Positions 18,916 through 45,169 are shown, numbered from the stretch's first letter. The stretch is 64,000 bases of DNA from Amphiscolops sp. MND2022 (GCA_964187785.1 OZ076409.1:3722001-3786000); one strand, 5' to 3'. The notes: a model not told the origin generated them from the sequence alone. Made by a program: numbers and translations.

Positions 18916-20283
18916 TGTTGTCTCCATGTAACGACAAGCTCTCACAATTGTCGTCATCTCGTCATAGAGAAGAAGGAACCTTTGACATGGGTATTTGCCC
19001 GGGACAGGCGCCCATAGACATAGGCCCATTTTGCTTCCTGGGTAAAAGTTGTCCCGTTAGGAGGGGGTCATCGTCTCTTAGGGAGCCCTCGTCAGCTTTA
19101 TCCAGTCGTTTATTGCTAACAGTAACGGGCACTTCGCTTTGTCTTCGGAACCACCGCTTAGTTAGCCTTTAAAAACATTCCGAAAGGAAGTATAAATGTA
19201 AACTTCGCCATTCAAGGTGACTTGGGGAATAATATCTAAAATGGCTAAGTAGCCATCAAATCACAACAAAATGCAACATTTTCGTCGATAACAATTATTT
19301 GGCAATGTCCGCATTCAGTTTGCAAGCTGGTGCACCACGGGCACAGCTTCACGAATTAGATGGAAAGACTCATCTTTACGGGTTTCGCTATTTAAGGTAG
19401 CAAACTGCTGAAATCAAGGTTAGCTCCTGTAAATGAGTCTCTTTTCAGAGGTTTTTGCAGTCTCTGGCGTCTGTTGTGGCGGCTGCTCTTATGTTTTTGC
19501 TCGTTCTTGCTCTTTGTTGTCGAAGTACATGCCAATTTTGTGGAAACAGCGAAAAGAGCAATCACATGCTCAGTGCCACGTCAAAGATCGAATTAGATTT
19601 TTTGACAAAATTCTGAACATGTCAAAGTTGCAATTTCGGCTGATTTCGCTGTACTAGAGGGTGCCGTTACGAACGAATTCCTACCTTCATGGAGACGAGA
19701 GAGCAACTTCTGTTCAGATAAACAGCAAAAAAGAATGTGAAGTTAGACGGTTTTACAATGTCCCCACACTTTATCACGCTTAACTGAATGCCTTTCAAAA
19801 GAAAACTTGTAGTTTTCAAGGTAACACAATATCTTAAAATGACCCATAAAAATCAAAACTCCAATTGTTTTTTTTAAAAACAATTCGAGATTTTTTGAAA
19901 CCTTTGTAAAATTTTCACTTAAAATCGTTCGATAGAAAACATATAGTTATCAACCGCAATTAATTGGTAAATGTTCAGGGCTTTTAAAAAACAATTCCGT
20001 GTTAGAAAAAAGCCTCATATTGTCAACAAAAAGTCGAAAAATCCAAACTGTTCCAATATATGTTTTTTATGCAGTTTAATCACAACTTTGGAGAAATTTT
20101 GAAAAGAAAGGAGTCTCAAAACCTTTAGAAACGAAAAATGAGCTATGTAGGATTTTTTGAAGGAAGAACTGCAGTCTTTTGCTCCAAAAACACTTCAGAA
20201 TGATCCCAATGAGTCCCAAAATAGGAAAATAGATTTTTTTTTCGTAAATTTTGTGAAACGTTTGAACCGCTTCGAAGGTTACA
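18916..20283 (-). repeat. Putative 5' LTR
   Basis: Direct repeat of 10867-12227, adjacent to the PBS. Confidence 0.7.
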
Positions 20284-22699: not shown

Positions 22700-23006
22700 A
22701 TCATTCTTACGACGAGAATTCTCACAAAAGCGGTGCCTTTATTGCCAGTTTCATACTGAATAGTTCCAGCATAGCGCGAGTGTCTCCGAATATTTTTTGT
22801 TTCGTGTCTGACATTTTCAAGACACGGTGAACTACATGTGTGGCGTGGCACCATCTCACTTTTAATTCCAAACTTTTGTTCAAGTGTAACGTCAAGCTAG
22901 CGACGCACATACCAGAACTGGGACAGTACTTAGGTAGCCTGGACAGGAGACCAAAGTCTTACAACATGCCTAAATACTAGTTTTTCGTCCCTAAGGGTCT
23001 CCTGGG

Positions 23007-25349
23007 TGTTACGACTATTGTTCGGTGTTGTTTTAGAACTAGTCGCAGTTCGTGACTTGACTGGGGTGGACGTTCCTGTTACGGAGATGTTTTCTTGGTC
23101 AGAATCAGAATCTTGTATGTTCGAACTAACTGTGCGTTTCTTGTTCGTTGGTGCTATTAACTTGAGCATTTCCTTTTGATTTTCGGCTAATATCTTTGTT
23201 AGATCAGTCATTATTTCTTTTCTCAGAGTTGTTTTCATTTCCTCCAAGTTTTCAAGCTCGAGTCTAGGATTTTTACTAGAACTAGGTATCAGGTTTTCAA
23301 TAGAGCCATTCTCATTCAGGGAAGCTTCAAAATCTCCTGACACTAACTCAGCTACAGCTTTCCTCTTCTGGCTTCTAGTTGTCATTTTGATAGAGAGAGA
23401 GAGAAGGTATCTTTGGAAAAATTGAATTCTTCAAAGATTTAAGTTTTCTTTTGAATACGTTGTAGTAACGGAACAAAACTGATTGTTACAAGGCAAGTCA
23501 AAATTGTAAACTTTACATGTATGTACTACATATTTATACTTTCCCAGCATCATTTGTTCCTCACCTAAAAATTCCTAGGTATCACAAAATCGGGTTTGTT
23601 CAACAAAAAGCGCTAATGATTCATATCATTTCAGTCCCGCGTCGTAAAATCAGGCATCAAAATTCCTAGTTGCGTCAGCGTTCCGTAAAATTTGTTGAAA
23701 TCATTTTTGTTCAGGCAACCCCATTTCCTGTTTAAAGCTCAAAATTGCGGTAAAATAAAAGTCTAGCTTGCATTTCCATCAGCGCAAGCACGCCGGCATG
23801 AACAATTAGTCAACTTCCAATTTGGGAAGCTGAGATTCGAAGCAACAGAATGACACTCAAAAATGGTGACGGAATGACGACGGAATAAATCAATTTGGAA
23901 GCGGAGGAAAAACATGGAAAATTGGTATAAAGGAACAAACGATGCTGAAACTATAATCTCAAATTCAAACATATGAATTACCTGCTAATGGTATGCTATA
24001 TCGTTTACATTGAACACAAATTAAGTCCAAACAGGACTTTAACGAGATACAACAAAGATGAGCGCAACATAATCGTAATAATAAACGGAAAGCAACTTCA
24101 ACACTTTGCACAATAATCATGAAATTTATCAAAACATAATCGAAGTCTGATCACTAGCCCGATTGTCATTATCATGAAATACAACTGTCACTACTGGCTT
24201 GGAGCCTATGAATTGGCGTTGACCTTACGTCCTACGTTAGGATTATCATTAATATATTTTGAATGCCGTAGTAAATCAAGTAGATTTGTTCCCTTAAAGG
24301 GGAACTAAATAAGGCGTAATGTCAACGTGTTTTAGTGATTTACCATGATGATACAAATCCAGAACATAAAATTACCATTGCAATTTTCTATCATTCTTCC
24401 TTACAGTACAGTTTTCCTTATGTAAAATCATAACTCTTAAATCTTTCAAATGCATCGATTTAAAAGGCTTCGTTTGGATTTCGTTTGAAGCAGTATTTTT
24501 CATTTGCAATTTTACAATTCGCTCCGTAGGTGCTACGTATTAAGATTATCTATAGCAGAACAGCGGAATACAATTTTACAATCCGCTCCGTAAGTGTTCC
24601 GTACGTATTGAGATTGCTCATAGCTTAGCTGTTGCATCAAGCGAAGAGAAAGAGGAGTGCGTAGGTGAATTCATTCTCTTTCTCTTATTCCAATTGGTGT
24701 TGCTAGGGGCAACCGAAATTGATTCTATTCGACTTAGCTAAGAATAGTTCTATCAATAGAGTGACGTTATCGGTCCGTAGAAGCAAAATTCCTAATATTA
24801 GCTCAGTAGATTGACGTTGCCATAGCGTTGTAAATATTTGCCTAAATCACTTGGCTGTGCTTTTAAGTGAATATTGACAACCACTTCATCTCTGGAAAAC
24901 AATTCCGCTCTATTATTTGTCTGTTCCTTTTCATTTTAGATTGTATGAATTCCGTTGGGATCTCGGAATTGAATTTTATTTTAATGTTTTCATTTTAGTG
25001 TGGACCAGTGGAAAGAATGATCCCAATTATAAATGTTCATTTTAGTGTTTAGATTAGTATGGCAGGAAATCAGAAGATCATACCGGAAATGAAAAATCTT
25101 ATCACGCGCAGGGGATATTTGACCGGATGTTTTAGCTAAAAATCATTTCTGAAAAGTGTTCCGTAACGTTTACGCTAGGTTTTGTATTTGGAAAATTATC
25201 TGCAATCGATTCAGCTGTACTGTAAGTAGAATTTAGATTAGTTTTAAAATTAGTTTAATAGAGTTTACCTCGGCCTTTTCCTCGACCTCTTCCAAAGCCG
25301 GGTATGCCGCTACAGCAGTAGAAATTACGACCGGGAGCGGGTCGTGACA
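23007..25349 (-). repeat. 3' LTR (2,343 bp)
   Basis: Near-identical to 37279-39621; preceded on the minus strand by the purine-rich AAGAGGGGCCC. Confidence 0.97.
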
Positions 25350-26160
25350 GGGCCCCTCTTGAACCAAGAGACAAGGGTAGAGCGTTGCAGTGCGGGATCT
25401 CTTTTCGGATAATGATTGGGGGGCGTCCGTTGTGTAGGCGCCTGCCGCGAGCAAGACCTCTGCCCTCCTTCATCTTGGCTATGAGTTTTTCTTCTTCTTC
25501 CATTTCGTGACTTTCCTTTTCTATTTGCGCCCATACAGCAGGACAAAATTCGGGTGGCCCACTTGGTTTGCTCGAGTTGCCTAATGTACAATTGCATTTT
25601 TCTTTTCCCTCCGTAGGGGGAACGTTTTCCTTTCTGCGGGGTAAGAATGGGGGTTGTCTGGGGCATTCCATTGCTTTCAGGCCACGGTCACGTCTGGCGG
25701 TTGCGGAGAACTGACGGTCTTCTAAATCTAAGTTGTATAGTGCGTCCAGATCAGCTAGCGGGGGTTCATTTAGGTCATTCAGCCTGACCGTATTCGGTAT
25801 TCTTTCATTTCCCAGCAAGGGAATTTTACCTTTCGGAGTGGACGCGGTTTCTGCCCGAGAGGACTGCTCCTTCGGGGAAGATGGTTCTTCGTAGTAGTCA
25901 TCTGTGTCCGAATTGGCTGCTGACAAGTTGAACGTGACTCGCCCGAACTTCTTTTTCTTTTTGGGGGTGGGCCCAAATTTCCTCGGGGAGACATCGGAAC
26001 CAAAAGAAGACTCTAAGTCTGCGTCACTCCCGCGGTAAACTTCGACTGAGGAGTCACTTAGAGTTCCTACCGTATTCAGTGGCAGCGTTTTCAGCGGAGT
26101 GCTCGTGCGATTATTTTCCTCATCAGAAGAGATGTCAATAACCAAGCTATATCCGTTCAT
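25255..26160 (-). CDS. Accessory sense ORF (301 aa), low-complexity with NLS-like and RG-rich segments, overlapping the 3' LTR
   Basis: Intact ATG-to-stop ORF with PKKKKKF and GRGRGKGRG; crosses the PPT and ends 95 nt inside the LTR. Confidence 0.7.
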   Translation of the reverse strand: MNGYSLVIDISSDEENNRTSTPLKTLPLNTVGTLSDSSVEVYRGSDADLESSFGSDVSPRKFGPTPKKKKKFGRVTFNLSAANSDTDDYYEEPSSPKEQSSRAETASTPKGKIPLLGNERIPNTVRLNDLNEPPLADLDALYNLDLEDRQFSATARRDRGLKAMECPRQPPFLPRRKENVPPTEGKEKCNCTLGNSSKPSGPPEFCPAVWAQIEKESHEMEEEEKLIAKMKEGRGLARGRRLHNGRPPIIIRKEIPHCNALPLSLGSRGALSRPAPGRNFYCCSGIPGFGRGRGKGRGKLY

Positions 26161-26751
26161 CTTGTTGAGAATTTCAGATTGTTTTATTTCAAGGATTTTC
26201 CTTGTTGGCGACGATTGTGCGTTAAGAAAATTGTGCTGGTCAAGCTTTATGAAGATTGGACGACAAATGACCGTTTCAAATTCTTTCTTACGTAATTTTT
26301 ATCGAAATTCTATTGGTCGGTTTTTCCGTTTTCGTTCCGGTGCGTCCCGAGTTAAGAAAAGAGATTTCTTTCATCTGCGCAGTGATTGGTTGAAACTCAT
26401 AGAAAATCTTCCAATTTTATCTTCTTTCTTCTTTCTGTTTAATGGCGCGATGACGTCATTGATTTTTCTCGAATGTTCTACGTTCATATTCCGTAATTTT
26501 CAAAATGCCATCTTTTCTTCAGAGCTCCTTGATGAATCTTTTATTCATCCGTATGCTTTTTGGAACGTTTTGTCCCGTCACTGCCGTAATGGGCTTTCAC
26601 TGAAGTTGAAGTTTAGATGATTTTTAATTACGTAGGGATGACGTTAATGATTTCTTTTAGGGTGTCAACTTTTACTCGACGTGATTTCTATTTTGTTGAT
26701 TTCTTTTCCCTTTTTAGATTTCGTTGGCATTCGCTATTGTCACTTTTGATC
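26161..26751. promoter_or_regulatory. Candidate bidirectional internal promoter
   Basis: Lies between two divergent genes; CCAAT/ATTGG at ~26255, 26312, 26385 and 26411; TGACGTCA at 26451-26458. Confidence 0.45.
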
Positions 26752-29700
26752 ATGAGTGAAAACGCTGTTCCTCTTGATGTCTCTGGTTTTCTCAGGGGCA
26801 TGAGACTAACTTCTGCTTCACTGAAGACGACGCTTATCCCTCGGAAACGGAAGTTATAGTTACATCTTCAGGTTGGTAAAAATCTTTCTGACTTCTTGGG
26901 TAGTAGGACTATTTTTGTTTTGGTGATCAGCCTTTTATAGTCTTACCCGTAACTCTGACGCGTCTGAACCAGATCTTGATTTTCAGTAACTCAACCTGGA
27001 ACTTCCTTGGCTGTTGTTTCCGCTACCACTACGGGTGGGACATCTGCTAACCCCGTGGGGTTATCTTCGCTGGGTTCTTCTTCGAAGCTGCCTCCAGTGA
27101 CTTCAGTGCTGGTTCCTGAGCAGTCCATCAATGATGCTTTGACATCGTTGCTTCCCGCTTGTCCTACTACTGAGTCTTCAGTTGTTGCGGGCATTGATGT
27201 TTCCTCTGCCGTTCCTCCTGATTTGTCCGAGGTAGTTCCGGGCATTGATGTTTCCTCTGCCGTTCCTCCTGATTTGTCCGAGGTAGTTCCGGGCGATTTT
27301 GATGTCAGTGTGGAGCCTCATGAAGGTGAGGCTGCTACCACCTCCACAGGAGAAGAAAGAGCTGTAGAAGAGGAGGATACGCCAGTCTGTAAGTTGTGTG
27401 ATTGGTTTCTTTTGTTGTTGTTGTTGTTTTTTTTGTTTTTTTTGTCAACTTGTTGGTTTCTGTTTTCCATTTCTTATCACTCTTGTGTTGTAGGTTCGAA
27501 AGTGTTTCCATTCCGGAAGACGAGCGTGAAGTTCATGGAATCGTCTCCGAAATTGAAAAGGACAACACGGGTCGCAGATGTTGATGCTACCTTGAGTGGT
27601 TGGAGTGGGGCAGAAGACGTATCATTCTCGGCAACTCCCGTGTCACCCGAGATGATGCAGCTGGGTCGTCAGTTGGCTTCGACGGTAGAGGAGCGTACTG
27701 CTCGGCAGATACAGACAGGTGAGTTGTTTATTTGTGATTGGCCTCTGGTTGGAATGGTGTGTGGTACGTTGCAGCGACGTTTGTTTTGGGTGTTACATTT
27801 GTTTGATTGGTTTTGTGCGTGTTATAGGCTTCAGCGAGCTTGTTGAGAAAGTGGAGAGTCACTTTGAGCGCCCGAAGGCGAAGAAATATAGCAGTCGGAA
27901 GTTGTTGCACCGTCGGATGCTAGCGCTGAATCCATTGTTTGCTGATTTCGTGACGGGTTCGGAGTGTGGAAGTGCAAAGGTCTTCTATTGTCGCATTTGT
28001 AGAAGAGACGTAAAGATGGGTTCAAAAGGGTCAGCTGAGTTTGCTCGTCACTTTGAGTCAAAGAAGCACTGGGAGCAGGACGTCACATATCGTGTGCACA
28101 TGGGTCTCCCTGTGTACAACAAGCTAATGGAGCCCATGGAGCTGAGTGCCCGTCAGAAGGACGACTTCCTTTCGCGGCCCTTCGTGGATTTGGGCGGGGA
28201 GTTTCCTTTCCCTGAGGACATGTTGCCCAAACATTCGAAGGCTTCTTCGAAAGTGCCACTGATGACTCTCGTTTCAAGCTTGAGTGATGTGTTGCGCAGT
28301 GGCGGGGATTTCACGTTGGTTCGTCGTCTGTGGGGCTACTTCCTTGCGTCTCTGGGCGGTCGGGATCCAGAATTCTCTCTACAGTGGAGTCGCTCAGAGA
28401 CTGTGGTTAGTATTTTGTGTGTTTGGTACATTTAGTGGGTGGTGTTCTGTTATGTGGTGTTTGCTCCTTTTATTGTAAGCCGCTAGGTGACCGTAAAGAT
28501 ATACTGTTGTGTGATTTCGCTCTCCGTTGTGGTTTATTTTCTCTTCCTTCTTCTTGTCATTTGGGTGTTTGTTTCAGTCCGTGTTGTGTCAAGGCCTTGT
28601 TCCCCGAGTGCTGCGCGTGATGTTCAAGAACATTGGGCAATTTCGGGAGTATTCTCTGCAGTACGAAAAGGATACGGAGGTAGAACGTTGTTTCGTTCTC
28701 TTCTGGGAAGACAACTATTTGAAGAAGGTATGTGTCGGTTGTGAGTCGCTGCTGCAGCGTGTGCCAAAACCAGAGTTGCTGCCCTTGGCACGAGTCGTCT
28801 GTAGTTTACCGTCTGGGAAGTTGCCTTTGGCTATAGTTGGCGGAAGTCCGTCCTTAGTCCGTGTCTTGAGTGACACTCGCGCTGACAGTCGTGTCTTTGT
28901 GTCTTACCAGCCCTTCACTAGTGAGATGTTGATTCGCTGTATTCGGCAAGCCTATCAGGACGTGTTCAGTATGATGGAGGTGACTTCTCTGGTGGATTAT
29001 ACTGTGTTACGTTTGAAAACTGCCATTTACGAGGACTGGATGGAGGAGAGAGCCATACTGTGTAAAAGTGTTCGTCAGGGCCACGTGGAATTCGCTGATT
29101 TGCGGGAAGTACTGTCAGATCTGATAGAGCTATGGCCTTCAATACGTCCATTTGTTCGATGTACTGGTAACCCTGAGGCTAAGGACAAAGCTGAACGGGT
29201 GAGTGAAAATTGTTCCTTCCGTCCGGTGTAGTTGCGGTGTTACTTTTTGTCAAATCAGGTTGTGTATTTTAGCTACAGGGGATTGATTGGTTACTAACTG
29301 CCAATAATATGATAACTTATCGGTTCAGTCTGCTGAAAGTGATTCTTGATACTTGTGAGTGTTTTCTTTTGAGTTGATAGATTGTTTTTTGACTGTTGTT
29401 GACTGCGTATTTGTTCGTATTAGTGGCTGTTCTTTCCTGTCTTCCTCTTTTGTGTATTGGGGTAGGGTTGTTCTTCTGTTGTATACAAATCATGGTGTAT
29501 GTTTTAGTTTACAACAATTGCCCCAGATTTCGACAGGATCAGGCGGATTATGCTTTCCGCGCTTATGGCGAGTTTTGCAATTTTGTGTATTGCCTGCTCT
29601 TGAAAACTCGCAGCACCAGTGGTCTTCCTGAAATTCATGCTTGGGAGTGTTACATGGATGCCGTGAAGGTCCGGGATTTCGCTGTTGTTCCGTGTGATTC

Positions 29701-30808
29701 TTTCCTCTCTAATCATGACTTGGGGCAACAGTTATCCGCAGGCAAGACGAAAGAGTATGTGGCTTTCCGACTTCATTGTCGTCAGTTCGTTGATCGTCTG
29801 ATCATCATTTTACTGGAAAGCACATATGCACGTTCTATTATTGCCAAGGGGATGTGTAGTTTCTGCACCGAGTTGATGCTGGAAGGCGATGATGTGGCCG
29901 TTTTCAGTCTATTTGCGGATTTGTGCCGTATTCTTGTATCCTGTGGTTCGCTGAGTGTGGACGAAAGTAGTGCAGCTTTGGAGGAACATGCAAGTTTCAT
30001 TGTGGAAAAACGTGGGTATCATTCTTCGTCAGGGCAGTCTGCTGGTGACATCGTGAATGTGGTGCCGTACCTGCTCCGTGATGTAGGGTTCTTGTCACGA
30101 CCACATTTGCTCCGGGTATTCAAGTTGTGTTGTCTTGTCGCGGGAGTGTCTGTCGCACGCTATCCTGCCGTGTCTCTGGATTTATCTGGTTTTGCATTGA
30201 GTGTTGCAGACTTTCAGAGCTGTGTGCAACTGGTGCAGTCTTATATATTGAGCGAAGGGTATTCGCATCAATCCTTCTTCAGTGATCAGACTCTTATAGT
30301 TGTGAAGAAGGCCATCGCAGATGCTGGTAGATTCTTTGGAGCGTCTGACTTCAGTATGTGGACAGATTTTTGCAGGGAGGATGTAGATGCCTTTGTTGTG
30401 AAGTATAGTGCCTTATTTACTACTTTCCTCGCAGAGCGCCGGAAAAGCTTCGATGCCCGTTATGTGGAGTACAACAATGCAAATCGGATGTCCCGGCTAT
30501 CGGATAGTGGCGATACAGCTGGTTCGAGTGGTTCCTTGAGTTCTGTGATCCAGCGGAAGAGGCAAGATACAGGTCCTCCAAGTGTTGTTTCTATGAAATC
30601 TGGTGGCAGTAAGTCAAGTAATGGCGGAACGAAGTCGGAGTCTAAGTCTGCTACTATTTCGTTTAAAAGGAAGCAGCAGAAAAACGTCGGTGGTGATTCG
30701 GGTGGTGGAGCTGGTTCGTCTAAAGGAAGAAAGAAAGTTGTACGAGAAGCTGATGATGATGGTTCTGGTAGTCAGCCGAAGTCTAAGAAAGTGTCCAAAA
30801 ACTGTTGA
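26752..30808 (+). CDS. Antisense multi-exon gene (~1,100 aa): BED-like zinc finger plus degenerate hAT-transposase-like body
   Basis: Exons (start uncertain)-26871, 26987-27388, 27494-27718, 27828-28405, 28578-29198, 29273-29354, 29508-30808. All six introns are GT-AG and phase-compatible. Contains FYCRICRRDVKMGSKGSAEFARHFESKKH. Confidence 0.82.
27190..27293 (+). repeat. 51-bp in-frame tandem duplication (GIDVSSAVPPDLSEVVP x2)
   Basis: Exact direct repeat within exon 2. Confidence 0.9.
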
Positions 30809-30962
30809 TGATTTAGTTTCATTTGGGTTTTGATGTAGTTATATTTTCTTTTTATTGTCTGCTGATCTTTGTTGTATTAGTTTTTGGGTATGTAGTTTTA
30901 GAGAGTCTTGAGAAAAATTGACGTAGCCATTCCGGTTCGGTTTGGTTTGTTGAGTTTTTTAG

Positions 30963-33900
30963 CTAGTCTTGAGTTGGACGTGAGTCCTCCGTAGTAACTG
31001 AGTCAAGCATTCGAAAATCAGGATTGACATTGGGTTTCGGATTAGGTCGCAAGTTGTATCTTCCCACTTTTCTAGGGTTATATCCAACGACGATAGGCGG
31101 CAATTCGGGTGTTTTGGGAGGGCTGTGTATCGGTGGTGGGGTCAAAATATATGGGTTATCGCTGACATCTAGGTCAAATGACGTTATATTGTCGGAAGGT
31201 GTTTTATCTTCTGCAGTATTTTCATTTGTGGATGTTTGAGCCACGTCGTTTTCCGTTGTAGGTGCGTCTGTGGTTATTTTAACCACGTCATTTTCCACTA
31301 TACTTTCTTTGGTGGTTGTTTTAACCACATCATTTTCCGTTGTACTTTCGTCGTTTCCTGCTATGTCTTCGATTTCTGTAAGTGTAGCTTCTTTGGCGGC
31401 GTTTTCCGTATTGTTTCCGAACAGAACTTCTCCGAATTCGGTTTCCCAAGCTTGCGCGTACCAATCATTGTGGGTTGTTTTAACCTCTGGGTCTGGAAGG
31501 TAATCTTCCCTTCTGACTGTTACGTCAGGTACTCGCTGATTGGGCGCATATAGCCTTAGGCGAATTCTGTGGAGGGTTTGAGTATACCTAGTTCCCGTGC
31601 GGCGTACGACGTAGTTGTTGTTCGAGAGTACTTTGACTACTATGTAGGGTCCAGTCCAGATGCAATCTTTAAAGGCAAATTTCATTGACTGGTTGTCTGC
31701 CTTCGGATTAAGGACGTAGCAGTAGTCGTTGACTTTGAGTGGCGTTGCTGTTGCTTTCTTGTCATAGTACTGTTTGTACTTTAAGTAGGACTGCATTAGA
31801 TTTTCTTTGGCGGCATGGTGTATTTCGGATATTTGCTTCTGTAGTTTATCCGTCAGTTCTTCGTTGTTATCTTTTTTCCATTCAGGTTTCAATCCGAGTT
31901 TTATGTCTAGGATGTTGTACGGAATGCGTCCGTGAAATACTGTTGTAGGTTCACAACCTAGGCTTTCATGATAGCTCGTATTGTAGTTCATGACCGCGAT
32001 CTGGACATATTTATGCCACATAGAGCGTCGTTCTCCCGTTGATATCTTTAGGGAGGTTTTCAAAGAGGCATGAGTCCTTTCTAGGATGCCAATTGTTTGA
32101 GCGTGTTTCGTCGATGCGTGGCTTATCCGTATATCCAATGTTTGTGTTATTTGATTGACTACTTCTGACCTGAATTGTGATCCTTTATCTGTTAGAATGA
32201 CGGTCGGCAGGTAGCAGTGTCGTGTCATGACGTCTATTATGCATCGTGCGACTGTTTTGGCTGTCATGTCCTGTGTCGGGTAAGCGAAAAGGTAACGTGA
32301 AAAAACATCCATCATCGTTATGATGTGTTGGTATCCATTTGAGGAAGGTAGGTTTGGTAGAATGTCTACTTCTAGGCAGTCTTCTGGTCCCATTGTGAAT
32401 TCAGTGTTGCTTAGCATTTTGGGGCGTATTTGTCTTGTGTCAATTCTTTTATTGGCAATGCAGTCTTGACAGCTGGTTACCCAAGCTCTGATTTTACGTG
32501 CAAGACCCGGGAAGTAGTATTTCGCTCTGCATTCTTGTATCATTTTTGCGATTCCTGGATGTTTATTTGTTTTCCCATGTAGAGTGGCCAAGAGTTCTGG
32601 GACTAGGTGTTTCGGAATTATAATTTGATTATGGGTGACTGATCCGTCTTCTCCGTAGTATTTCCGCATCAGAACTCCATCTTTCATTATGATTCTTTCT
32701 TCATGGCGTAATAGGTTTCGTCCTCGTGGTTCAGTTTTGAGAAGGTGTTTGTCATATTCTTCATGTGAGATCCGTTGTTTCAGTGCTTTGAGGAGAGGGT
32801 CTGCATCTTGTTCGTTTCTGATCCGTGCATTTTCTTTGATTGCGCCGAAGGAGTAGACTGCGGAGTTGAGTGGTATCTTGATGACTTCGGTTACTTTTGT
32901 TGATAGTTCTCTCTCATGTTCGTCTAGGGCGCGTTGTTTGCTGAGTGCTTTTCGGGCAAAGATTTCTTGTTCAGATTCATCTTCTTCATCAGGTAGGAAG
33001 AAAAGTTGTTCTTCGTCAGCTACATCTGATGATTGTAGATTGACCTCAATTGGGGACGTTAGGATGTCGTCTCGTAGTTTAAGTTGTACCTTTTCTTTCG
33101 GTGTGAGTTCGAGTCTTGAAAGAAAACCTGCTGCTGTGTTTTGGGAGCCTGCTACGTGCATGATTCGAAACTTGAACTGTAATACATAGTCACAGGCATT
33201 CCAGAGTGCAGGGGGTGTCGTTTTGGTCTGGAAGAATCTCGTTACTGAGCGGTTGTCTGTTAAGACTAGGGTTGGAATTGTTGCTTCCCATAGTATGTGA
33301 CTGTATTCGAGGAATGCATGATAGATTGCTAAGAATTCCTTGCAGTAGATAGACATTTTCAGTTGTGCAGGTGAAAAAACTCGTGATCCGAACGCTACTG
33401 GTGCGAAGGTTTTTCGTTTGGAGAATATTTTGCGTTCATCGTTCTCCTCAATCATGAAGGCGTAGCCTGACGCACGAAAGCTTGCATCCGTCATTAGGAC
33501 GTATTGTTTTCCTGCTATGGGCTGTCGGAGCGCAAGTCCACAAGCTTCCGCTAAACTGGCGTTAATTTCCTTAAAGTTATCGACAAGTTCTTCTGATATT
33601 CTGATCTTGGAGTCTGCTTTAAGAAGTTCGTACATGCCAAGCTTTTCTGACAAGCGCGGTATGTAGTTGCGGTAATAGTTAACAAAGCCAATGTACTTTT
33701 GAACTTGTTTTTTGGATTTGGGGAAGAGTACTTTGGAGAGGAAATTTTTGACTTTTTGATCTTGCGGGGCTACTCCGTCGGGGGTGATGATTCGGCCAAG
33801 AAATTCGATTTGGGTTACTCCAAAATGGCATTTTTCGATGGTTAGTTTTAGTCCTGCTTTCCTAATGCATTTGAAGACTGCTCCGATGTTTTTTATGAGC

Positions 33901-36251
33901 TGTTCCGTTGTGTTTGCAGCAATGCCAATGTCATCTACGTATTGTGCACATTGATCGGCTTTGATGACTGAGTCCAGATACTCACGCATGAAGCTCGAAA
34001 AGGCTGATAGGGCTCTGCTTAGTCCTTGTGCCAGACGGCGATAGGCGAACGTCCTACTAGCAAAATTAAAAGCAAGTAACTCTACTGACCTTTGGTCTGC
34101 CATTTGAAGGCAGTGATACGCCTGGGAGCAGTCGAGTTTGCAGAATAGTTTTTTCCCTGCTAGGTGTTGTGCCGCATCTGAGAGGGTGCTGACAGGGTGG
34201 TTGTTGTTGATGTAGTCATCTGCTATGAGTGCGTTGATTTTGCGCAGATCCACCAGTAGTCTCAGTTTGCCGTTGGGTTTCCGTTGTGCAAATATAGGAC
34301 TGGCGTACTTGGAGAAGGGGAGTGTCGTGATGATGCCGTATTTGTGCATCAGTGCCAGTTCCAGTGTTAGGTCTTCTTTGAGGTTGATCGGGACGGATAA
34401 GCTCTGTGTGTAGACTGGTTTGTCGTCCTGTGGTGTTAGGCTGACTTTGAACTGTGTATTCATCCCGATATCTAGTCGGTGTCGAGCAAAGATGTCATTG
34501 AATTCAACAATGGTGTCCTCAAGTTTTTCACGGTCTTTGCCCGTAATTAGTGAGTCTGTCCATTTGAACATTGATAGAAATTTGTTGCGAGAGTCTTCGT
34601 TTTCGGTTGGGTCAAGTTTTTCTAATTCGGCAAGGTCCCGCAGTTCTTTCAGGATTCGCTTTTGTATGGGCGAATGTTCTTGTTCGTTGCCTGGGTGTTC
34701 TGGGGTCGGGAACCAGAATTTTTCTTCATTGTCTTCTGGCCGTTCTACTTGCATTAGTGCGTTGATGTACGTGACCACATCGTCATGGTCATTGAGGAGA
34801 TTCAGGGCGGCAATGTCAACTGGGCGGATCATCTTCGTTTCTTCGGGTTTCAGGATTTGCAGTTCGGCCATTTTGGTGTCGTTGGCTATTGTGTATGGAA
34901 AATCCGTGGTGTTGGCGATTTTAATTGGGAGCTTTTTATCTCTAGCTGTTGTAATCGCTGGGGCTACTATTACTTTCGCGCATTCATCGAATTGTGGTAG
35001 GGGTTGTATTGTGCCCGTTATTGGGTGCTCAATACTCACAGGGATTGTTGCGTAGATGACTCGGGTAGAGTGCGCTGGGATTGTATGCTTGGCTTCGGTC
35101 TTTATCGTGATGGGTTTGGGATTGCACTTTTGTCTTTCGTCTGTGAGCGCCATCGTGATTTGGATCTTGGGAAAGTTGATGGTTCCCTGTGCCGTGTCAA
35201 GGATTGCGGCATGCTTTCGTAGAAACGCTAATCCAATTATGGGGAATGACGTTTGATTCATGATGATGAATGTTTCTTCAAAAGTGTAATCTCCTATTTT
35301 GAAGCGTAGAGTGTACGTGGCAAGTGGTTGTTCTAGTTCGGCATTGGCGTATTGCACTTTGAAAGGGGGTGGAGGTGCTTTGTTAACAATGCATTGACTC
35401 GCCTTTTGGTGGAGTTTTTCAGTATCCCTTTCGCTAATAGCATTAATGTACGCACCTGAGTCGACTAAGGCTTCGATTTTGACAGTATTGAATTCGATTG
35501 GTAAGAAGAGCATTCTCTTTTTCTTCTTGAGGGCAATTGCAGACATTAACGGGATGTAGTCGTCTTCCTTGTCGTGCTGGATGAATTCTTTGATGACATC
35601 TAGATCTTCTGGTAGTGTTGGATGACATTCCGTTATTTCTTCGTCTTCAGCGGCTATTGCTGTGGCTGGCGCGGTTGGTGGTGATGACGAGAGTGAAGCG
35701 GTGTTTTCTCGCTGTTCTCTTGCTTGTCGTGACCATATTGTTTTGTCTTCAATGCATATGATGTTTTCGGCATCGATCGGTGTGGACGTGACGGTGACGG
35801 GTGCTGTTGGGGACGGTGTTGTTCTTTTCAGGATCGGTGACGGCGGTGACGGTAGGTTTGTGGTCTTCGTGGTTTGAGCTTGAGGGTTTGAGACTTGGAT
35901 TTTGAAGGATAGTTTATTTGTATCATAGATGGTTGGTTCATCCCAAGGGTCATATCTGTAGTCTCTGTCATATATATAAATTCGGTCTGTTTTTGATTCC
36001 GGTAGCGGTCTTTTGAGTGTCGCATAGTTATCGGGCGATTCTGTTATCCACTGGGGTAGTGGCGTTGGATCTTCTGGGTGTCTGGCGTTATGCCTGAGTA
36101 TCATGCCTACGTTCCAGCGGCGTTGCCAGTCTTGAGTTGGTTCTTCATTACATTCAGTTAAAAAATCTTCTTCATACCTGTTTGGGGGGTCCTCTATCGT
36201 GTACGCCCTCGCGTCTACTTTTTCCCCAAATCGTAGGCGCGGCGACTTTAG
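30963..36251 (-). CDS. pol: Gypsy Pol (protease, dUTPase-like linker, RT, RNase H, integrase)
   Basis: ALVDSGA, LLVDLRKIN, QYVDD, MTDAS, H..HPG...C..C, TDKGSQF, WTGPY. The frame is open upstream to the gag stop, in the -1 frame. Confidence 0.95.
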   Translation of the reverse strand, partial: LKSPRLRFGEKVDARAYTIEDPPNRYEEDFLTECNEEPTQDWQRRWNVGMILRHNARHPEDPTPLPQWITESPDNYATLKRPLPESKTDRIYIYDRDYRYDPWDEPTIYDTNKLSFKIQVSNPQAQTTKTTNLPSPPSPILKRTTPSPTAPVTVTSTPIDAENIICIEDKTIWSRQAREQRENTASLSSSPPTAPATAIAAEDEEITECHPTLPEDLDVIKEFIQHDKEDDYIPLMSAIALKKKKRMLFLPIEFNTVKIEALVDSGAYINAISERDTEKLHQKASQCIVNKAPPPPFKVQYANAELEQPLATYTLRFKIGDYTFEETFIIMNQTSFPIIGLAFLRKHAAILDTAQGTINFPKIQITMALTDERQKCNPKPITIKTEAKHTIPAHSTRVIYATIPVSIEHPITGTIQPLPQFDECAKVIVAPAITTARDKKLPIKIANTTDFPYTIANDTKMAELQILKPEETKMIRPVDIAALNLLNDHDDVVTYINALMQVERPEDNEEKFWFPTPEHPGNEQEHSPIQKRILKELRDLAELEKLDPTENEDSRNKFLSMFKWTDSLITGKDREKLEDTIVEFNDIFARHRLDIGMNTQFKVSLTPQDDKPVYTQSLSVPINLKEDLTLELALMHKYGIITTLPFSKYASPIFAQRKPNGKLRLLVDLRKINALIADDYINNNHPVSTLSDAAQHLAGKKLFCKLDCSQAYHCLQMADQRSVELLAFNFASRTFAYRRLAQGLSRALSAFSSFMREYLDSVIKADQCAQYVDDIGIAANTTEQLIKNIGAVFKCIRKAGLKLTIEKCHFGVTQIEFLGRIITPDGVAPQDQKVKNFLSKVLFPKSKKQVQKYIGFVNYYRNYIPRLSEKLGMYELLKADSKIRISEELVDNFKEINASLAEACGLALRQPIAGKQYVLMTDASFRASGYAFMIEENDERKIFSKRKTFAPVAFGSRVFSPAQLKMSIYCKEFLAIYHAFLEYSHILWEATIPTLVLTDNRSVTRFFQTKTTPPALWNACDYVLQFKFRIMHVAGSQNTAAGFLSRLELTPKEKVQLKLRDDILTSPIEVNLQSSDVADEEQLFFLPDEEDESEQEIFARKALSKQRALDEHERELSTKVTEVIKIPLNSAVYSFGAIKENARIRNEQDADPLLKALKQRISHEEYDKHLLKTEPRGRNLLRHEERIIMKDGVLMRKYYGEDGSVTHNQIIIPKHLVPELLATLHGKTNKHPGIAKMIQECRAKYYFPGLARKIRAWVTSCQDCIANKRIDTRQIRPKMLSNTEFTMGPEDCLEVDILPNLPSSNGYQHIITMMDVFSRYLFAYPTQDMTAKTVARCIIDVMTRHCYLPTVILTDKGSQFRSEVVNQITQTLDIRISHASTKHAQTIGILERTHASLKTSLKISTGERRSMWHKYVQIAVMNYNTSYHESLGCEPTTVFHGRIPYNILDIKLGLKPEWKKDNNEELTDKLQKQISEIHHAAKENLMQSYLKYKQYYDKKATATPLKVNDYCYVLNPKADNQSMKFAFKDCIWTGPYIVVKVLSNNNYVVRRTGTRYTQTLHRIRLRLYAPNQRVPDVTVRREDYLPDPEVKTTHNDWYAQAWETEFGEVLFGNNTENAAKEATLTEIEDIAGNDESTTENDVVKTTTKESIVENDVVKITTDAPTTENDVAQTSTNENTAEDKTPSDNITSFDLDVSDNPYILTPPPIHSPPKTPELPPIVVGYNPRKVGRYNLRPNPKPNVNPDFRMLDSVTTEDSRPTQD

Positions 36252-37657
36252 TTTTTTGGCTGAGAGGACGTGGTAGGTACAGGTTGTTCACTGATTTTGT
36301 TGGTTGGGATGGTGAATTCTCGTTTCTTCTTTCTGGGGTCATTTGCTGCGTTGGCTCCGTTCCAACAATTCTCAGTTTTGTGCATCTTGCCACATGTATC
36401 ACACTTGGGTTTGGGTACTTCGTTTTGGGCTGGGTCTTTTGTGTTTGTTTTGGCTGTATTATAACGTTCTCGTTGAAGTTTGCGACACTGTGCCTTGTAG
36501 AGGCCATATTTGCCACAGTGAAAACAATGGCCTCGTTGTTGTTGGTCTTTTTTATGGTCCGTCACTACAGCGTCCACTGTGTTGAGTGGGACTAGGGTTG
36601 TTTCATCGGGCGCACCTAGTCCGTTTAATCTCATTTCCCTCTCAAGATGTAAAACTATGTCATTGTAGGGTTTATCTTCCAAATATGCTCTGTTGAGGAT
36701 CTTTTTGACGTGATCCGGCATTTTGGCGTAGATTGCTTTATCAATGAATTTTTGTGCTTCTGAGCCGAATGCTTCCTTTGCAGTTTTTTGCAGGGTGTCA
36801 AGGAACTCATGGAGTTTTTGTTTAGTGGGGTCAAAATGCAGGGCGTCCCACTCACATCTCGCTTTAGCGGATGATTATAAATCACCAAAGCGGCGTTTAA
36901 ATGCCGTTATGACTTCTTCTAGGTTGTCTTTTTTGGTGTCATCTAGATTACAATACGCTTGTAGTGCGTTTCCTCGTAGGAGTGAATGGAAGTAGTTGAT
37001 CTTTTGTATCTCGGTTAGGTGAGGATACATTTTGATATTGTTTCGGAATAGGTCCTCAAAAAGTTCAAACTTTTCGGACTTACCATCGAAAACTGGGAGC
37101 GAAGCAGTGAGTGCTTTCGGCATCGGAAGTAGATTGGTTGATGGGAATGTCTGTGGTTGTGGTGCGAACAGTATCTTTGACGTGGATGGTCGGTCTTTTG
37201 GTTGTTCGCTAAGTATACGTTGTGCTTTTGGTCGTTTGGTGGGTTGGTTAGTGGAATCATTGAGGACTCCTGTCACCATGTTACGACTATTGTTCGGTGT
37301 TGTTTTAGAACTAGTCGCAGTTCGTGACTTGACTGGGGTGGACGTTCCTGTTACGGAGATGTTTTCTTGGTCAGAATCAGAATCTTGTATGTTCGAACTA
37401 ACTGTGCGTTTCTTGTTCGTTGGTGCTATTAACTTGAGCATTTCCTTTTGATTTTCGGCTAATATCTTTGTTAGATCAGTCATTATTTCTTTTCTCAGAG
37501 TTGTTTTCATTTCCTCCAAGTTTTCAAGCTCGAGTCTAGGATTTTTACTAGAACTAGGTATCAGGTTTTCAATAGAGCCATTCTCATTCAGGGAAGCTTC
37601 AAAATCTCCTGACACTAACTCAGCTACAGCTTTCCTCTTCTGGCTTCTAGTTGTCAT
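36248..37657 (-). CDS. gag: Gypsy Gag with one in-frame TAA (36875-36877)
   Basis: ORFs 36875-37657 and 36248-36721 share a frame with a single stop between them; LPVFDGK motif; knuckles CFHCGKYGLYKAQC and CDTCGKMHKTENC. Confidence 0.88.
37261..37278 (-). promoter_or_regulatory. Primer-binding site (tRNA-Leu-like)
   Basis: TGGTGACAGGAGT directly after the LTR's terminal CA. Confidence 0.75.
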
Positions 37658-39621
37658 TTTGATAGAGAGAGAGAGAAGGTATCTTTGGAAAAGTTGAATT
37701 CTTCAAAAATTTAAGTTTTCTTTTGAATACGTTGTAGTAACGGAACAAAACTGATTGTTACAAGGCAAGTCAAAATTGTAAACTTTACATGTATGTACTA
37801 CATATTTATACTTTCCCAGCATCATTTGTTCCTCACCTAAAAATTCCTAGGTATCACAAAATCGGGTTTGTTCAACAAAAAGCGCTAATGATTCATATCA
37901 TTTCAGTCCCGCGTCGTAAAATCAGGCATCAAAATTCCTAGTTGCGTCAGCGTTCCGTAAAATTTGTTGAAATCATTTTTGTTCAGGCAATCCCATTTCC
38001 TGTTTAAATCTCAAAATTGCGGTAAAATAAAAGTCTAGCTTGCATTTCCATCAGCGCAAGCACGCCGGCATGAACAATTAGTCAACTTCCAATTTGGGAA
38101 GCTGAGATTCGAAGCAACAGAATGACACTCAAAAATGGTGACGGAATGACGACGGAATAAATCAATTTGGAAGCGGAGGAAAAACATGGAAAATTGGTAT
38201 AAAGGAACAAACGATGCTGAAACTATAATCTCAAATTCAAACATATGAATTACCTGCTAATGGTATGCTATATCGTTTACATTGAACACAAATTAAGTCC
38301 AAACGGGACTTTAACGAGATACAACAAAGATGAGCGCAACATATTCGTAATAATAAACGGAAAGCAACTTCAACACTTTGCACAATAATCATGAAATTTA
38401 TCAAAACATAATCGAAGTCTGATCACTAGCCCGATTGTCATTATCATGAAATACAACTGTCACTACTGGCTTGGAGCCTATGAATTGGCGTTGACCTTAC
38501 GTCCTACGTTAGGATTATCATTAATATATTTTGAATGCCGTAGTAAATCAAGTAGATTTGTTCCCTTAAAGAGGAACTAAATAAGGCGTAATGTCAACGT
38601 GTTTTAGTGATTTACCATGATGATACAAATCCAGAACATAAAATTACCATTGCAATTTTCTATCATTCTTCCTTACAGTACAGTTTTCCTTATGTAAAAT
38701 CATAACTCTTAAATCTTTCAAATGCATCGATTTAAAAGGCTTCGTTTGGATTTCGTTTGAAGCAGTATTTTTCATTTGCAATTTTACAATTCGCTCCGTA
38801 GGTGCTACGTATTAAGATTATCTATAGCAGAACAGCGGAATACAATTTTACAATCCGCTCCGTAAGTGTTCCGTACGTATTGAGATTGCTCATAGCTTAG
38901 CTGTTGCATCAAGCGAAGAGAAAGAGGAGTGCGTAGGTGAATTCATTCTCTTTCTCTTATTCCAATTGGTGTTGCTAGGGGCAACCGAAATTGATTCTAT
39001 TCGACTTAGCTAAGAATAGTTCTATCAATAGAGTGACGTTATCGGTCCGTAGAAGCAAAATTCCTAATATTAGCTCAGTAGATTGACGTTGCCATAGCGT
39101 TGTAAATATTTGCCTAAATCACTTGGCTGTGCTTTTAAGTGAATATTGACAACCACTTCATCTCTGGAAAACAATTCCGCTCTATTATTTGTCTGTTCCT
39201 TTTCATTTTAGATTGTATGAATTCCGTTGGGATCTCGGAATTGAATTTTATTTTAATGTTTTCATTTTAGTGTGGACCAGTGGAAAGAATGATCCCAATT
39301 ATAAATGTTCATTTTAGTGTTTAGATTAGTATGGCAGGAAATCAGAAGATCATACCGGAAATGAAAAATCTTATCACGCGCAGGGGATATTTGACCGGAA
39401 GTTTTAGCTAAAAATCATTTCTGAAAAGTGTTCCGTAACGTTTACGCTAGGTTTTGTATTTGGAAAATTATCTGCAATCGATTCAGCTGTACTGTAAGTA
39501 GAATTTAGATTAGTTTTAAAATTAGTTTAATAGAGTTTACCTCGGCCTTGTCCTCGACCTCTTCCAAAGCCGGGTATGCCGCTACAGCAGTAGAAATTAC
39601 GACCGGGAGCGGGTCGTGACA
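37279..39621 (-). repeat. 5' LTR (2,343 bp), containing the gag start codon
   Basis: Near-identical to 23007-25349. Confidence 0.97.
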
Positions 39622-40332
39622 CTGGGAACTTTTCCAAGACGCCGTGGAGTCTCCTCATATTAGAGCTCCGTGGCGACGTGCCGGCACACTCCAAGTCCGG
39701 ACACATCCCACAAGCACGTAAAAACAGTCCTGAAAGCTTCCTGCGGTCCTACATACTCCCGAGGTCCGAAAACAGGGGTTTAGGCAGAGCACATCTCAAT
39801 TAAGTAAATAACGTCTAAAATCAACACCTTCCAGTTTTACCATTAACAAACACCTGAAAATCTGCCAAAATACTATAAAACAGCACTGGGGAGGCATTCT
39901 GAACAGTTCCTAGCGAGTTTTGAGCTTTGGGTTCAACTCACGCAAAAATCGCACCTTCTTCTTCATCTCTTTTCCGGCTCATTCTTGCGATTTTCCGGTT
40001 TTGATGGCACAACACTGGGGTATTGGCTAGTTTCTGCTTCTGAATATCTTCTTTCGCTGCTTTTCGGTCTTCTCTGTGGTCTGGGGGGGTCTTTTTGCGT
40101 TGTGTGTGCTTCCTTTTCGATTTCAACGACCTGCTAGGTCGGCCATTTTGATTCGCACACTTTTTGGGTATTCTTCGAATTTTTGAAATTTTTGACCTTG
40201 ACTGGTGGACGTTACAAAGTAAAACTTAAAATTTTAGAAGTTCTTAGAAAGCACAAATTATGCAAAGTTAGGTAGACATTTTTGCCAATCATGCATTTCT
40301 TACAAACTTTGTTCTGAAATCACAAACATTGC

Positions 40333-43300: not shown

Positions 43301-45169
43301 ACTGAATTACATTCAAATGAACCTGATTTGTCGTTTTCTGCAACTAAGTCTGAACAGCTCCTGAATGTCGAATCACCCAAACAAGAACCAAGAGATATCA
43401 AAGAAGCCCTAGAAACACCTGAGTGGAGAACAGCAATGGAGGAAGAATACAATTCGCTACAGAGCAACAAAGTTTGGAAACTAGAACAATTGCCTAATGG
43501 AACCAAGCCTTTGAAGGAAAAATGGCATTTTGCGGTGAAGTACAACGCAGATGGTACAGTAACAAGTACAAAGCCCGCTTCGTGGCTAAAGGTTTTTCCC
43601 AGAAAGAAGGTGTCGACTACAATGAAACCTATTCACCAACTGCTCGTTTAACAACAATCAGAGTTTTGCTGAATCTCGCTGCCCAGTATGAAGTCTGTCC
43701 CAAGCAGCTTGATATCAAAACTGCTTTCCTGAACGCTAAGATCGATGAGGATATATATCTTGAACAGCCTGAAGGTTTCGAGGAAACTGATCTGAATGGT
43801 GGCAAATTGTACTGTAAATTAGAAAAAAGTTTGTATGGTCTGAAACAATCTGTCAGAAATTGGTATTTGACATTGAAATCTTGTTTAGAAAAGATTGGTT
43901 TCAAGGAGTGTTCGTTCGACAAATGTCTGTTTGTGTGTGGTGAAGGTGAGAACTTGAGTGTTGCGTGTGTGTGGGTTGATGATATTCTGTACTGGAGTCG
44001 TCGAAAGTCATTCACGGAGTGGTTCGAAAATGAGATAAAAACAAATTTCGATGTAAGTGACTGCAAAGATTTTAACTGGTTCCTTGGAATGAAGATTAAC
44101 TGTGAGCCGGGAAAAATTACTGTGTCACAGGAGAAGTACATAGATGAAATGTTGGAAAAATTTGGAATGACTGAGTGCAAGCCAGTCGATACACCAATGG
44201 TGGAGAAAACTGTCCTTTGTAAAGAACAATGCCCCAAAAATGAAGAAGAAAAAGAAGTAATGGGAAAAAGAGACTACAGAGGCCTTGTGGGTAGCTTGAA
44301 TTACCTAGCTCAAACATGCCGCCCAGACATTGCTAATGCTGTGCACGCGTTAAGTAGTTTCTTGATTAACCCAGGCATTGAACATTGGATAGCAGCAAAG
44401 CGGGTTTTGAAATACTTGAAAGGCCAAAGAGACAGTAAACTTGTATTTAAAAAGTCAGACAGTGGTATCGAGTTGAGTGCTTTTTCCGATGCCGATTGGG
44501 CAGGTAACATTGACAATAGAAAAAGTACTGGTGGTATGTGTGTGAAGCTGAATGCGAAGTCTGGATGTGTGAGTTGGCAAAGTAAAATACAAAGTAATGT
44601 GGCAACATCAACAGCAGAAGCTGAAGTAAACGCTTGTGTAGCGTTGTGTCATGAAACTATTTTCATAAGTGGTTTGTTGAAGGCGCTTGGCGTGAGTGTG
44701 CAGAAACCTGTTGTGCTGAATCAGTTCATCATAGTAAAACAAAACATTTTGCAATAAAAACGCATTACCTGCAAGATCTTAGTGAAAAGGGGGAGATTGT
44801 TTTGAATTACGTAGAAACTGAAAACATGCCTGCTGATATTCTAACAAAACCGCTCCAAAAAACAAAACTGATGAAGTTCAAAGGATTCCTGATGAACCCG
44901 TAAAACGCTCCGAAAAAGGGGGAGTTTCAGTTTGTTCATTCATGAATCATTTCATTCATTGAATTCTTTTTCTTTTGGTTTTCGGCGCTTGATCAAATTG
45001 TGAAATAGTTGACTCTTCATGATTGAATTACCGCTTTAAAGTTGATTTACTGAACCTTGAATTGGAATGTAACTGAAATCTGCAATCAATCGAAAGTGAT
45101 CTACAATTTACATTTTGCAGAAAAAGAAAATGAGTTCGCAACAGTTAAAAAAGGGCTCCTAACCTCTTA
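40333..45169 (+). mobile_element. Full-length Ty1/Copia LTR retrotransposon, decayed
   Basis: LTRs 40333-40576 and 44925-45169, TSD ATTGC, PBS GGTTATGGGCCCAG, PPT GAAAAAGGGGGAG. Confidence 0.95.
41001..44903 (+). pseudogene. Copia gag-pol polyprotein with stops and frameshifts
   Basis: Three CCHC knuckles, WHRRLGH, SAPYTPEENG, YKARFVAKGFSQ, WVDD, FSDADWAG; domain order PR-IN-RT-RH. Confidence 0.95.

Follow-up and report, generated by a model that had tools for sequence, protein, structure and literature searches.

The stretch of DNA analysed here, referred to below as the window, comprises 64,000 nucleotides of one strand from Amphiscolops sp. MND2022 (GCA_964187785.1 OZ076409.1:3722001-3786000). 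It contains a young, 16.6-kb insertion of a Ty3/Gypsy-type long terminal repeat (LTR) retrotransposon, the sense strand of which is the minus strand of the window. Within the 5.6 kb that separate the pol stop codon of this element from its 3' LTR, and on the opposite (plus) strand, lies a gene interrupted by six introns, which we call the antisense gene. Comparison among its copies indicates that this gene is real and under purifying selection, and the fold predicted for its product points to probable descent from a hAT-type transposase.

The element is bounded by two direct repeats of 2,343 bp (23007-25349 and 37279-39621), identified by comparison of the window with itself. These are 99.6% identical, with nine mismatches, have TG..CA termini, and are flanked on both sides by the 5-bp target duplication CTGGG. 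The pol frame has Pfam matches to Asp_protease (8.6e-06), RVT_1 (1.2e-22), RT_RNaseH (1.5e-12), Integrase_H2C2 (1.8e-13) and rve (5.5e-13), arranged in the domain order of Gypsy-type elements (Pfam positions 258-364, 669-832, 900-1033 and 1224-1393).

Joining the seven exons of the antisense gene in silico at six GT-AG introns yields a single open frame of 1,100 codons, which begins inside exon 1 and ends with the TGA at 30806-30808; the 3' end of every intron consists of a pyrimidine-rich tract followed by AG (Table 1). An original prediction, made from the sequence of the window alone, had proposed these six introns together with their limits and donor sequences, matching phases over about 1,070 open codons from exon 2 onward, and a stop about 155 bp, tail-to-tail, from that of pol. 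All six introns were borne out, splicing leaves approximately 1,069 codons from exon 2 onward, and the two stops are 154 nt apart. On the plus strand between 30701 and 31600, no AATAAA or ATTAAA was found downstream of the antisense-gene stop.

It had also been noted that the ATG at 26752 is out of frame. This is indeed the case in the window copy, in which exon 1 is 120 nt long. However, in 11 of 16 other copies, exon 1 is 121 nt long, has an in-frame ATG, contains no stop and keeps the GTTGGT donor, so that the out-of-frame ATG is a defect of the window copy and not of the gene. The stretch immediately upstream (26000-26751) is 75–91% identical, with insertions and deletions, in copies of the 90% identity class. 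Within exon 2, a 51-nt unit is tandemly duplicated in frame at 27184-27294 (2.2 units, 98% identical); one unit is missing in 11 of the 16 other copies, and both are present in three.

Conservation of the gene and its place in the element

As the main comparison set, we aligned 16 further copies, which are 86–99% identical to the window in exon 7. The GT..AG termini are kept in 88 of the 96 intron-by-copy combinations (six introns in 16 copies), and the eight exceptions fall in two truncated copies and in two of the most diverged ones. Among these 16 copies, intron lengths vary by numbers that are not multiples of three, while exons 4, 5 and 7 mostly have no gap columns at all. Furthermore, in five copies from distant subfamilies, in which the exon-7 protein is 54–70% identical to that of the window (50–80% in protein identity more generally), tblastn matches end exactly at the exon limits of the window, and most of the gaps between exon matches run from GT to AG. 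The intron positions are therefore common to these copies, whereas the lengths differ: intron 4 measures 80, 115, 135 or 155 nt in other subfamilies, as compared with 172 nt in the window, and intron 5 measures 70–103 nt, each at an unchanged position. A relative from a protein collection, P0216, is an open reading frame (ORF) that reads through an in-frame intron 4, and the 53 extra residues start with Val-Ser and end with Phe-Gln, as expected of an intron of the form GTGAGT...TTTCAG.

The ratio of nonsynonymous to synonymous substitution rates (dN/dS) over exons 4–7 is 0.13–0.22 in all 16 copies, in line with the value below 1 that the original prediction had put forward as a test in other copies; in exons 2–3 it is 0.08–0.56 in those copies that can be aligned. 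When all frames were compared in 12 of the 16 copies, the true frame gave 0.11–0.19, as opposed to 1.0–6.6 in four of the five other frames. The fifth, a reverse frame that shares third codon positions with the true one, gave 0.17–0.29 and is not open. A chance ORF was ruled out by the dN/dS values, the frame control and the retention of the splice sites.

The divergence of the introns presents an oddity. In the class of copies that are 86–92% identical, intron divergence (K 0.06–0.22) is lower than the estimated dS of exons 4–7 (0.2–0.3), and introns 1 and 2 are 98% identical in some copies in which exon 2 is 89% identical. This low divergence could reflect either recombination among subfamilies or constraint acting on intron sequence.

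The antisense gene also occupies a fixed place. In 34 of 35 loci, which represent 31 distinct copies, the C-terminus of pol lies on the opposite strand, separated from the end of exon 7 by approximately 158 nt; in the one remaining locus, a deletion spans the ends of both genes. The same tail-to-tail arrangement with pol was found in all five diverged copies, as well as in single representatives of two further subfamilies, the exon 7 of which is related to that of the window via P0014 alone (P0014 itself being 36% identical to the window). Thus, the gene lies antisense inside a Gypsy element, as had been proposed, and is not unique to the window copy, since both its presence and its arrangement are kept across many subfamilies. 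In the C7 copy, pol is 83% identical to that of the window and exons 4–7 are 42–63% identical, which indicates that the antisense gene evolves faster than pol.

The base composition of the antisense gene is the element's own: on the plus strand, the excess of T over A and of G over C is uniform from 26 to 38 kb (AT skew -0.26 to -0.31, GC skew +0.11 to +0.25). We found no terminal inverted repeats (TIRs) flanking the antisense gene, all inverted pairs of 13–15 nt having one arm inside exon 7, and inspection by eye revealed no TIR-like ends at the tips of the LTRs. The earlier statement that TIRs and an 8-bp target duplication are missing therefore stands, the mobile unit having LTRs and a 5-bp duplication. 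A nested DNA transposon was ruled out by the absence of TIRs and by the fixed place of the gene relative to pol; together with the element-like composition, these observations also make a passive passenger very unlikely.

A search of the 1.07-Gb genome with exon 7 gave 98 scored places out of 7,220 first-look candidates, and 81 of the 98 are free of stops. Further subfamilies, in which exon 7 is only 36–55% identical, are also mostly open. Two relatives from the public protein collection have places in the same genome that are 94–98% identical to them, in addition to large subfamilies at 53–72%. In a representative library, exon 7 matched 429 clusters at E<=1e-3; the 10 that were looked up all derive from ENA, and the clusters may all belong to the same species or its near relatives. 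When JGI metagenomes were scanned with the exon-4 alignment, 39 stretches matched and no relative was among them.

Table 1. Features of the retrotransposon and its antisense gene, in window coordinates
Feature	Position	Strand	Remarks
Target-site duplication CTGGG, left	23002..23006	.	same 5 nt at 39622-39626
3' LTR	23007..25349	-	2,343 bp, 9 mismatches to 37279-39621, TG..CA
Candidate third sense-strand ORF	25255..26298	-	347 codons from stop to stop; first Met is codon 47
Candidate polypurine tract	25350..25365	-	purine-rich, abuts 3' LTR; in element orientation the sequence before the LTR ends ...CAAGAGGGGCCC; putative role
Upstream stretch, 3' LTR to exon 1	25350..26751	+	1.4 kb; promoter and 5' untranslated region would lie here or in the LTR, judging by position
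Exon 1	26752..26871	+	120 nt; ATG out of frame in window copy
Intron 1	26872..26986	+	GTTGGT..CAG, phase 1; GT..AG kept in 14/16 copies
Exon 2	26987..27388	+	low-complexity, weakly conserved N-terminal region
Intron 2	27389..27493	+	GTAAGT..TAG, phase 1; kept in 14/16 copies
Exon 3	27494..27718	+	protein 68-81% identical in C12, C2 and C6 copies
Intron 3	27719..27827	+	GTGAGT..TAG, phase 1; kept in 15/16 copies; same position in C6 copy
Exon 4	27828..28405	+	zinc finger, then conserved region
CCHH zinc finger	27989..28069	+	C-x2-C-x16-H-x5-H; C54, C57, H74 and H80 of exon 4
Intron 4	28406..28577	+	GTTAGT..CAG, phase 0; kept in 14/16 copies
Exon 5	28578..29198	+	207 codons; 58-79% identical over full length, same length, in C7, C5 and C6 copies
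RNase H-like core	28629..28916	+	predicted strand-strand-strand-helix-strand-helix
Intron 5	29199..29272	+	GTGAGT..TAG, phase 0; kept in 15/16 copies
Exon 6	29273..29354	+	27 codons + 1 nt
Intron 6	29355..29507	+	GTGAGT..TAG, phase 1; kept in 16/16 copies
Exon 7	29508..30808	+	includes TGA stop
All-alpha domain	29537..30148	+	exon-7 residues 10-213; AlphaFold2 pLDDT (predicted local distance difference test) ~85-98
Disordered C-terminal tail	30521..30805	+	Ser/Lys-rich, basic; pLDDT <50 from residue 338
Convergent spacer between antisense-gene stop and pol stop	30809..30962	.	154 nt
pol ORF	30963..36287	-	1,774 codons; protease, reverse transcriptase, RNase H, integrase in order
gag region	36248..37278	-	in-frame stop 36875-36877; DUF1759 1.4e-09 (Pfam)
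Candidate primer-binding site	37262..37278	-	TGGTGACAGGAGTCCTC in element orientation; directly follows 5' LTR
5' LTR	37279..39621	-	pair of 23007-25349 repeat
Target-site duplication CTGGG, right	39622..39626	.	pair of left copy

Predicted fold of the antisense protein and its relation to hAT transposases

The antisense protein, of about 1,100 residues, comprises a variable, disordered N-terminus, a CCHH zinc finger, a predicted RNase H-like core, a helical region and a basic, disordered tail. Its exons were studied separately, except that the read-through ORF of P0216 was used to fold exons 4 and 5 together. We identified 119 relatives for exon 4, in which 35 columns are invariant among 13 sequences, and 44 relatives for exon 5. 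The four Cys and His positions of the finger are invariant or nearly so, both in these 13 relatives and in the roughly 28 rows of alignment A2. Pfam gave no match on the exons of the antisense gene beyond sub-threshold C2H2 hints near the finger, which are to variants of the U1/matrin/JAZ type (best E 0.035). Thus, while the finger of the original prediction was recovered as a conserved CCHH motif, its description as BED-like was not, the weak Pfam hints being to families other than zf-BED. The proposed disordered N-terminus and basic C-terminal tail were both recovered, the N-terminal region being variable and of low complexity.

The AlphaFold2 model of exon 7, built from 26 sequences, contains a confident all-alpha domain, followed by a less certain helical part and by the disordered tail. 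Although variable, this tail is basic in all relatives and may serve as a nuclear-localisation element. ESM Atlas returned only helical-repeat look-alikes for exon 7, all under 0.9, and no usable match for exon 5. In the AlphaFold2 model of exons 4–5, built from P0216 and 54 sequences, the exon-5 part adopts an RNase H-like pattern of strands and helices.

When the model of exons 4–5 was compared with 350,542 chains using Foldseek, ranks 1–9 were all occupied by the hAT transposase Hermes (E 4.9e-4 to 1.8e-2, over 304–444 columns), and no other transposase or integrase appeared before rank 16. Comparison of the exon-5 part with 48,161 chains using VIA-align filled the list with RNase H-like proteins, including the PIWI domain of Argonaute (6.4), lentiviral integrase cores (5.7–6.1), the RH domain of Prp8 (5.9) and Hermes (5.1, residues 175–286), as well as UvrC, ISCth4 and RuvC-type domains. 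Exon 7 weakly matches the helical domain of Hermes, in a match that is tied with many unrelated helical chains. The order of the two Hermes matches agrees with that in the protein, with some 100 residues left over for Hermes 286–364, and about 142 residues separate the finger from the first strand of the core, compared with 121 in three hAT ORFs of the same genome. These three, which are confirmed by Pfam, belong to a larger group of ordinary hAT transposase genes in this genome, with open frames of 597–697 codons among 150 matches to PF05699 (the hAT dimerisation domain), so that a source for capture exists in the same genome.

A number of observations weigh against the reading that the antisense gene encodes a hAT descendant with a role in the element. 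At the level of structure, the Hermes alignments have template-modelling (TM) scores of only 0.13–0.17 and root-mean-square deviations of 17–26 A, and the underlying model of exons 4–5 is poor (mean pLDDT 59.7) and includes the 53 intron-derived residues. Retroviral integrase cores, which score up to 6.3, match the core in rigid superposition no less well than Hermes. For exon 7, Foldseek found nothing, and Hermes is absent from the top 620 chains. At the level of sequence, no Pfam hAT family (neither zf-BED, DUF659 nor Dimer_Tnp_hAT) matched in five exons or in 26 and 54 relatives. PF05699 itself matched none of 26 exon-7 relatives at E<=10, whereas the same profile, as a control, found the 150 places mentioned above and scored 4e-17 on the three control hAT ORFs. 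Hidden Markov model and profile searches of the PDB sequences did not find Hermes, and hhalign against the three hAT ORFs gave probabilities of 0.2% and 0.1%. The profiles used were shallow (effective number of sequences, Neff, 2.2–3.9), and a remote hAT relation is therefore compatible with these results; the best hhalign stretch, although not significant, paired the CxxC of the finger with the finger of hAT.

The putative active site likewise appears to depart from that of hAT transposases. The three control ORFs show the motifs SDIWT, TDNATN, RWNS and SERVWS, none of which is recognisable in alignments A1 and A2 of the antisense family, and the canonical active site has likely been lost, as judged by the position of motifs and not by residue-level superposition. 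The family has an invariant Glu on strand 1 of the core and a conserved G-x-S after strand 4. Its conserved acidic residues (in P0216 numbering, E282 in 26 of 26 sequences, E288 in 27 of 29, E318 in 28 of 28, D355 in 27 of 29 and D380 in 27 of 29) could have a role. The original prediction had reported neither obvious catalytic Asp or Glu residues nor an SVER.FS motif; in our alignments, too, the hAT motifs are unrecognisable, and the acidic residues listed above are conserved. Also to be counted on the opposing side are (i) the state of the window copy, which is probably defective, given the frame error in exon 1 and the in-frame stop that interrupts gag; and (ii) the transcription and splicing of the antisense gene, which are deduced from comparison of copies.

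Taken together, the proposed origin from a hAT-like transposase was supported at the level of fold, by the Foldseek ranking of Hermes and the RNase H-like core, and found no support in any test at the level of sequence. We consider the antisense protein to be probably of hAT descent.

Origin and role of the antisense protein

On balance, and with moderate confidence, we favour an explanation in which the protein descends from a hAT-type transposase, has no canonical catalytic motifs, and acts in trans as a nuclear nucleic-acid-binding accessory factor of the element. The antisense gene would be transcribed from a promoter of its own, located either within the LTR or within the 1.4 kb that precede exon 1, and its transcript would be spliced by the host. 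The introns would persist through reverse transcription because they are in the wrong orientation in the genomic RNA of the element, to which they are antisense. The finger, the apparently dead transposase-like core and the basic tail suggest that the protein would bind nucleic acid in the nucleus, where it might regulate transcription from the LTR, or anchor the integrase and cDNA of the element to chromatin. Short motifs repeated within the LTR, taken as candidate binding sites, were no more frequent than in shuffled sequences, and tandem repeats within the LTR were limited to two weak arrays of 12–14 nt. A wider version of this explanation, which we hold more tentatively and at slightly less than even confidence, is that a large and long-lived Gypsy radiation turned a hAT descendant into an antisense gene that it keeps permanently, introns included; the class I element would then depend on a DNA-binding class II helper without catalytic activity for target choice or control of the LTR.

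The element might also carry a selected accessory gene of different ancestry: its core would derive from another source, for instance a retroelement integrase or another DDE transposase superfamily, or the protein would form an old family by itself. The matches to Hermes would in that case stem from nothing more than a shared fold and additional helices. The uniformly negative sequence and profile tests against hAT would be expected in that case, as would an exon-7 match that Hermes shares with unrelated helical chains. However, a non-hAT core does not readily account for nine leading Foldseek ranks that are all Hermes, over 304–444 columns and ahead of any other transposase or integrase up to rank 16, or for two Hermes matches that follow the order of the protein. 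The finger, moreover, is of the CCHH type and lies some 142 residues upstream of the core, whereas in retroviral integrases an HHCC domain directly precedes the core. We therefore regard a non-hAT ancestry as unlikely, although it deserves to be taken seriously.

It is quite improbable that the protein is a still-active nuclease or transposase with a non-canonical acidic site, which would provide a second activity at the DNA level, such as cleavage or joining at target sites. The near-invariant acidic residues in and after the core (E282, E288, E318, D355 and D380) and the strong selection over the whole core would suit such an enzyme, but the hAT motifs that surround the catalytic triad are unrecognisable, a G-x-S occupies the position after strand 4, Dimer_Tnp_hAT is found in none of 26 relatives, and TIR-like ends are lacking both around the gene and, by eye, at the LTR tips. 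Even less credible, and close to refuted, is the notion that a hAT DNA transposon or a captured host gene landed in a single Gypsy copy and has since been copied passively. Taken by itself, the window copy, with its exon 1 out of frame, would be compatible with this. Yet place and orientation are kept in subfamilies in which exon 7 is only 36–70% identical, dN/dS is 0.13–0.22, TIRs are absent, and the base composition matches that of the rest of the element.

The accessory gene that we favour has its closest positional counterpart in plants. According to the passages of Vicient & Casacuberta 2020 (PMC7264820), the 2025 Retand paper in Mob DNA (PMC11963269) and Ustyantsev et al. 2015 (PMC4408406) that deal with them, Gypsy elements of the Tat/Retand/Grande group contain antisense ORFs between pol and the 3' LTR (aORF-3R), some of which have TRP28 (PF04195), a domain that takes its name from a transposase, and are predicted to be nuclear or DNA-binding, and a regulatory role has been proposed. 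The place and orientation are those of the antisense gene, the distance from pol to the 3' LTR being 2.9–6.6 kb in the Retand elements covered there and 5.6 kb here, and, as far as those passages describe it, both types of gene are retained across lineages. The plant ORFs differ in that neither PF04195 nor the plant mobile domain (PMD) gave a match in the antisense gene (five exons at E<=10, and 26 and 54 relatives). Furthermore, the antisense gene has six introns, whereas the word intron does not occur in the main text of PMC7264820 or PMC11963269, and its product, about 1,100 residues long, has its predicted folds arranged as in hAT transposases.

With Hermes, other hAT transposases and the host proteins derived from them, the antisense protein shares, in its models, an N-terminal CCHH-type finger, an RNase H-like core and a large helical region in the same predicted order. 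However, hAT elements have TIRs and 8-bp duplications, while the antisense gene moves only as cargo of a retroelement, and its protein has long disordered extensions at both termini. A looser parallel is HBZ of human T-cell leukaemia virus type 1 (HTLV-1), which is also encoded antisense, towards the 3' end of a reverse-transcribing element; its transcript is spliced and its product is a nuclear regulator, as predicted for the antisense gene. HBZ is a small basic leucine zipper protein whose gene contains a single intron and is driven from the 3' LTR; the antisense gene, in contrast, has six introns and encodes a large, transposase-like protein. Retroviral antisense genes such as HBZ are mentioned in passages of PMC7264820 and PMC11963269. 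Antisense extra ORFs in plant Gypsy elements and antisense genes in some retroviruses are already known, their origin and role being open. Full-text searches of the literature outside subscription journals listed no paper on an LTR retrotransposon with an antisense gene that is hAT-like or contains introns.

The six conserved introns point to a separate antisense mRNA that host splicing would process, and they illustrate how a split gene can be carried by a retroelement. If our interpretation is correct, a multi-intron gene has been carried through reverse transcription over generations, protected only by its orientation. The link to hAT at the level of fold suggests recruitment, by a mobile element of one class, of a protein from the other. 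Should the protein bind the LTR or host chromatin, it would offer a handle on target choice or on escape from silencing. The hundreds of mostly open copies, in subfamilies that extend down to 36% identity, constitute a natural series for mapping the residues that are important.

Other features of the element and the window

The candidate sense-strand ORF at 25255-26298, situated between the 3' LTR and the antisense gene, would encode a low-complexity sequence rich in Ser, Lys and Glu, for which Pfam gave no match. In the C7/C5 subfamily, an open frame of 279 codons occupies the same place and is 32% identical to it over 192 amino acids. To judge from this similarity, the element may have a third gene on its sense strand here, or the conservation may be of the DNA alone.

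The gag region consists of two ORFs, 36875..37702 and 36248..36874, which abut in one frame and are separated by the stop at 36875-36877. The second of these overlaps the pol ORF by 40 nt in a different frame, as expected for a frameshift site. DUF1759, to which gag has its Pfam match, is typical of animal elements.

Just outside the right end of the element, positions 39624-40185 are 84–86% identical to 9357-9916, which means that the 16.6-kb element landed within another repeat. Elsewhere, too, the window is rich in transposons. A Copia-type element lies between repeats of 245 bp (40333-40576 and 44925-45169), and Gypsy-like pol remnants lie between the repeats 48634-48846 and 54355-54609; a strand bias like that of the 16.6-kb element is seen at 48–54 kb, over this second Gypsy-like remnant. 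Two direct repeats of 1.34 kb (10885-12222 and 18934-20275), 8 kb apart, are 97.7% identical, and two reverse transcriptase elements resembling long interspersed nuclear elements form an inverted pair (891-4380 and 8545-5065) that is 70% identical.

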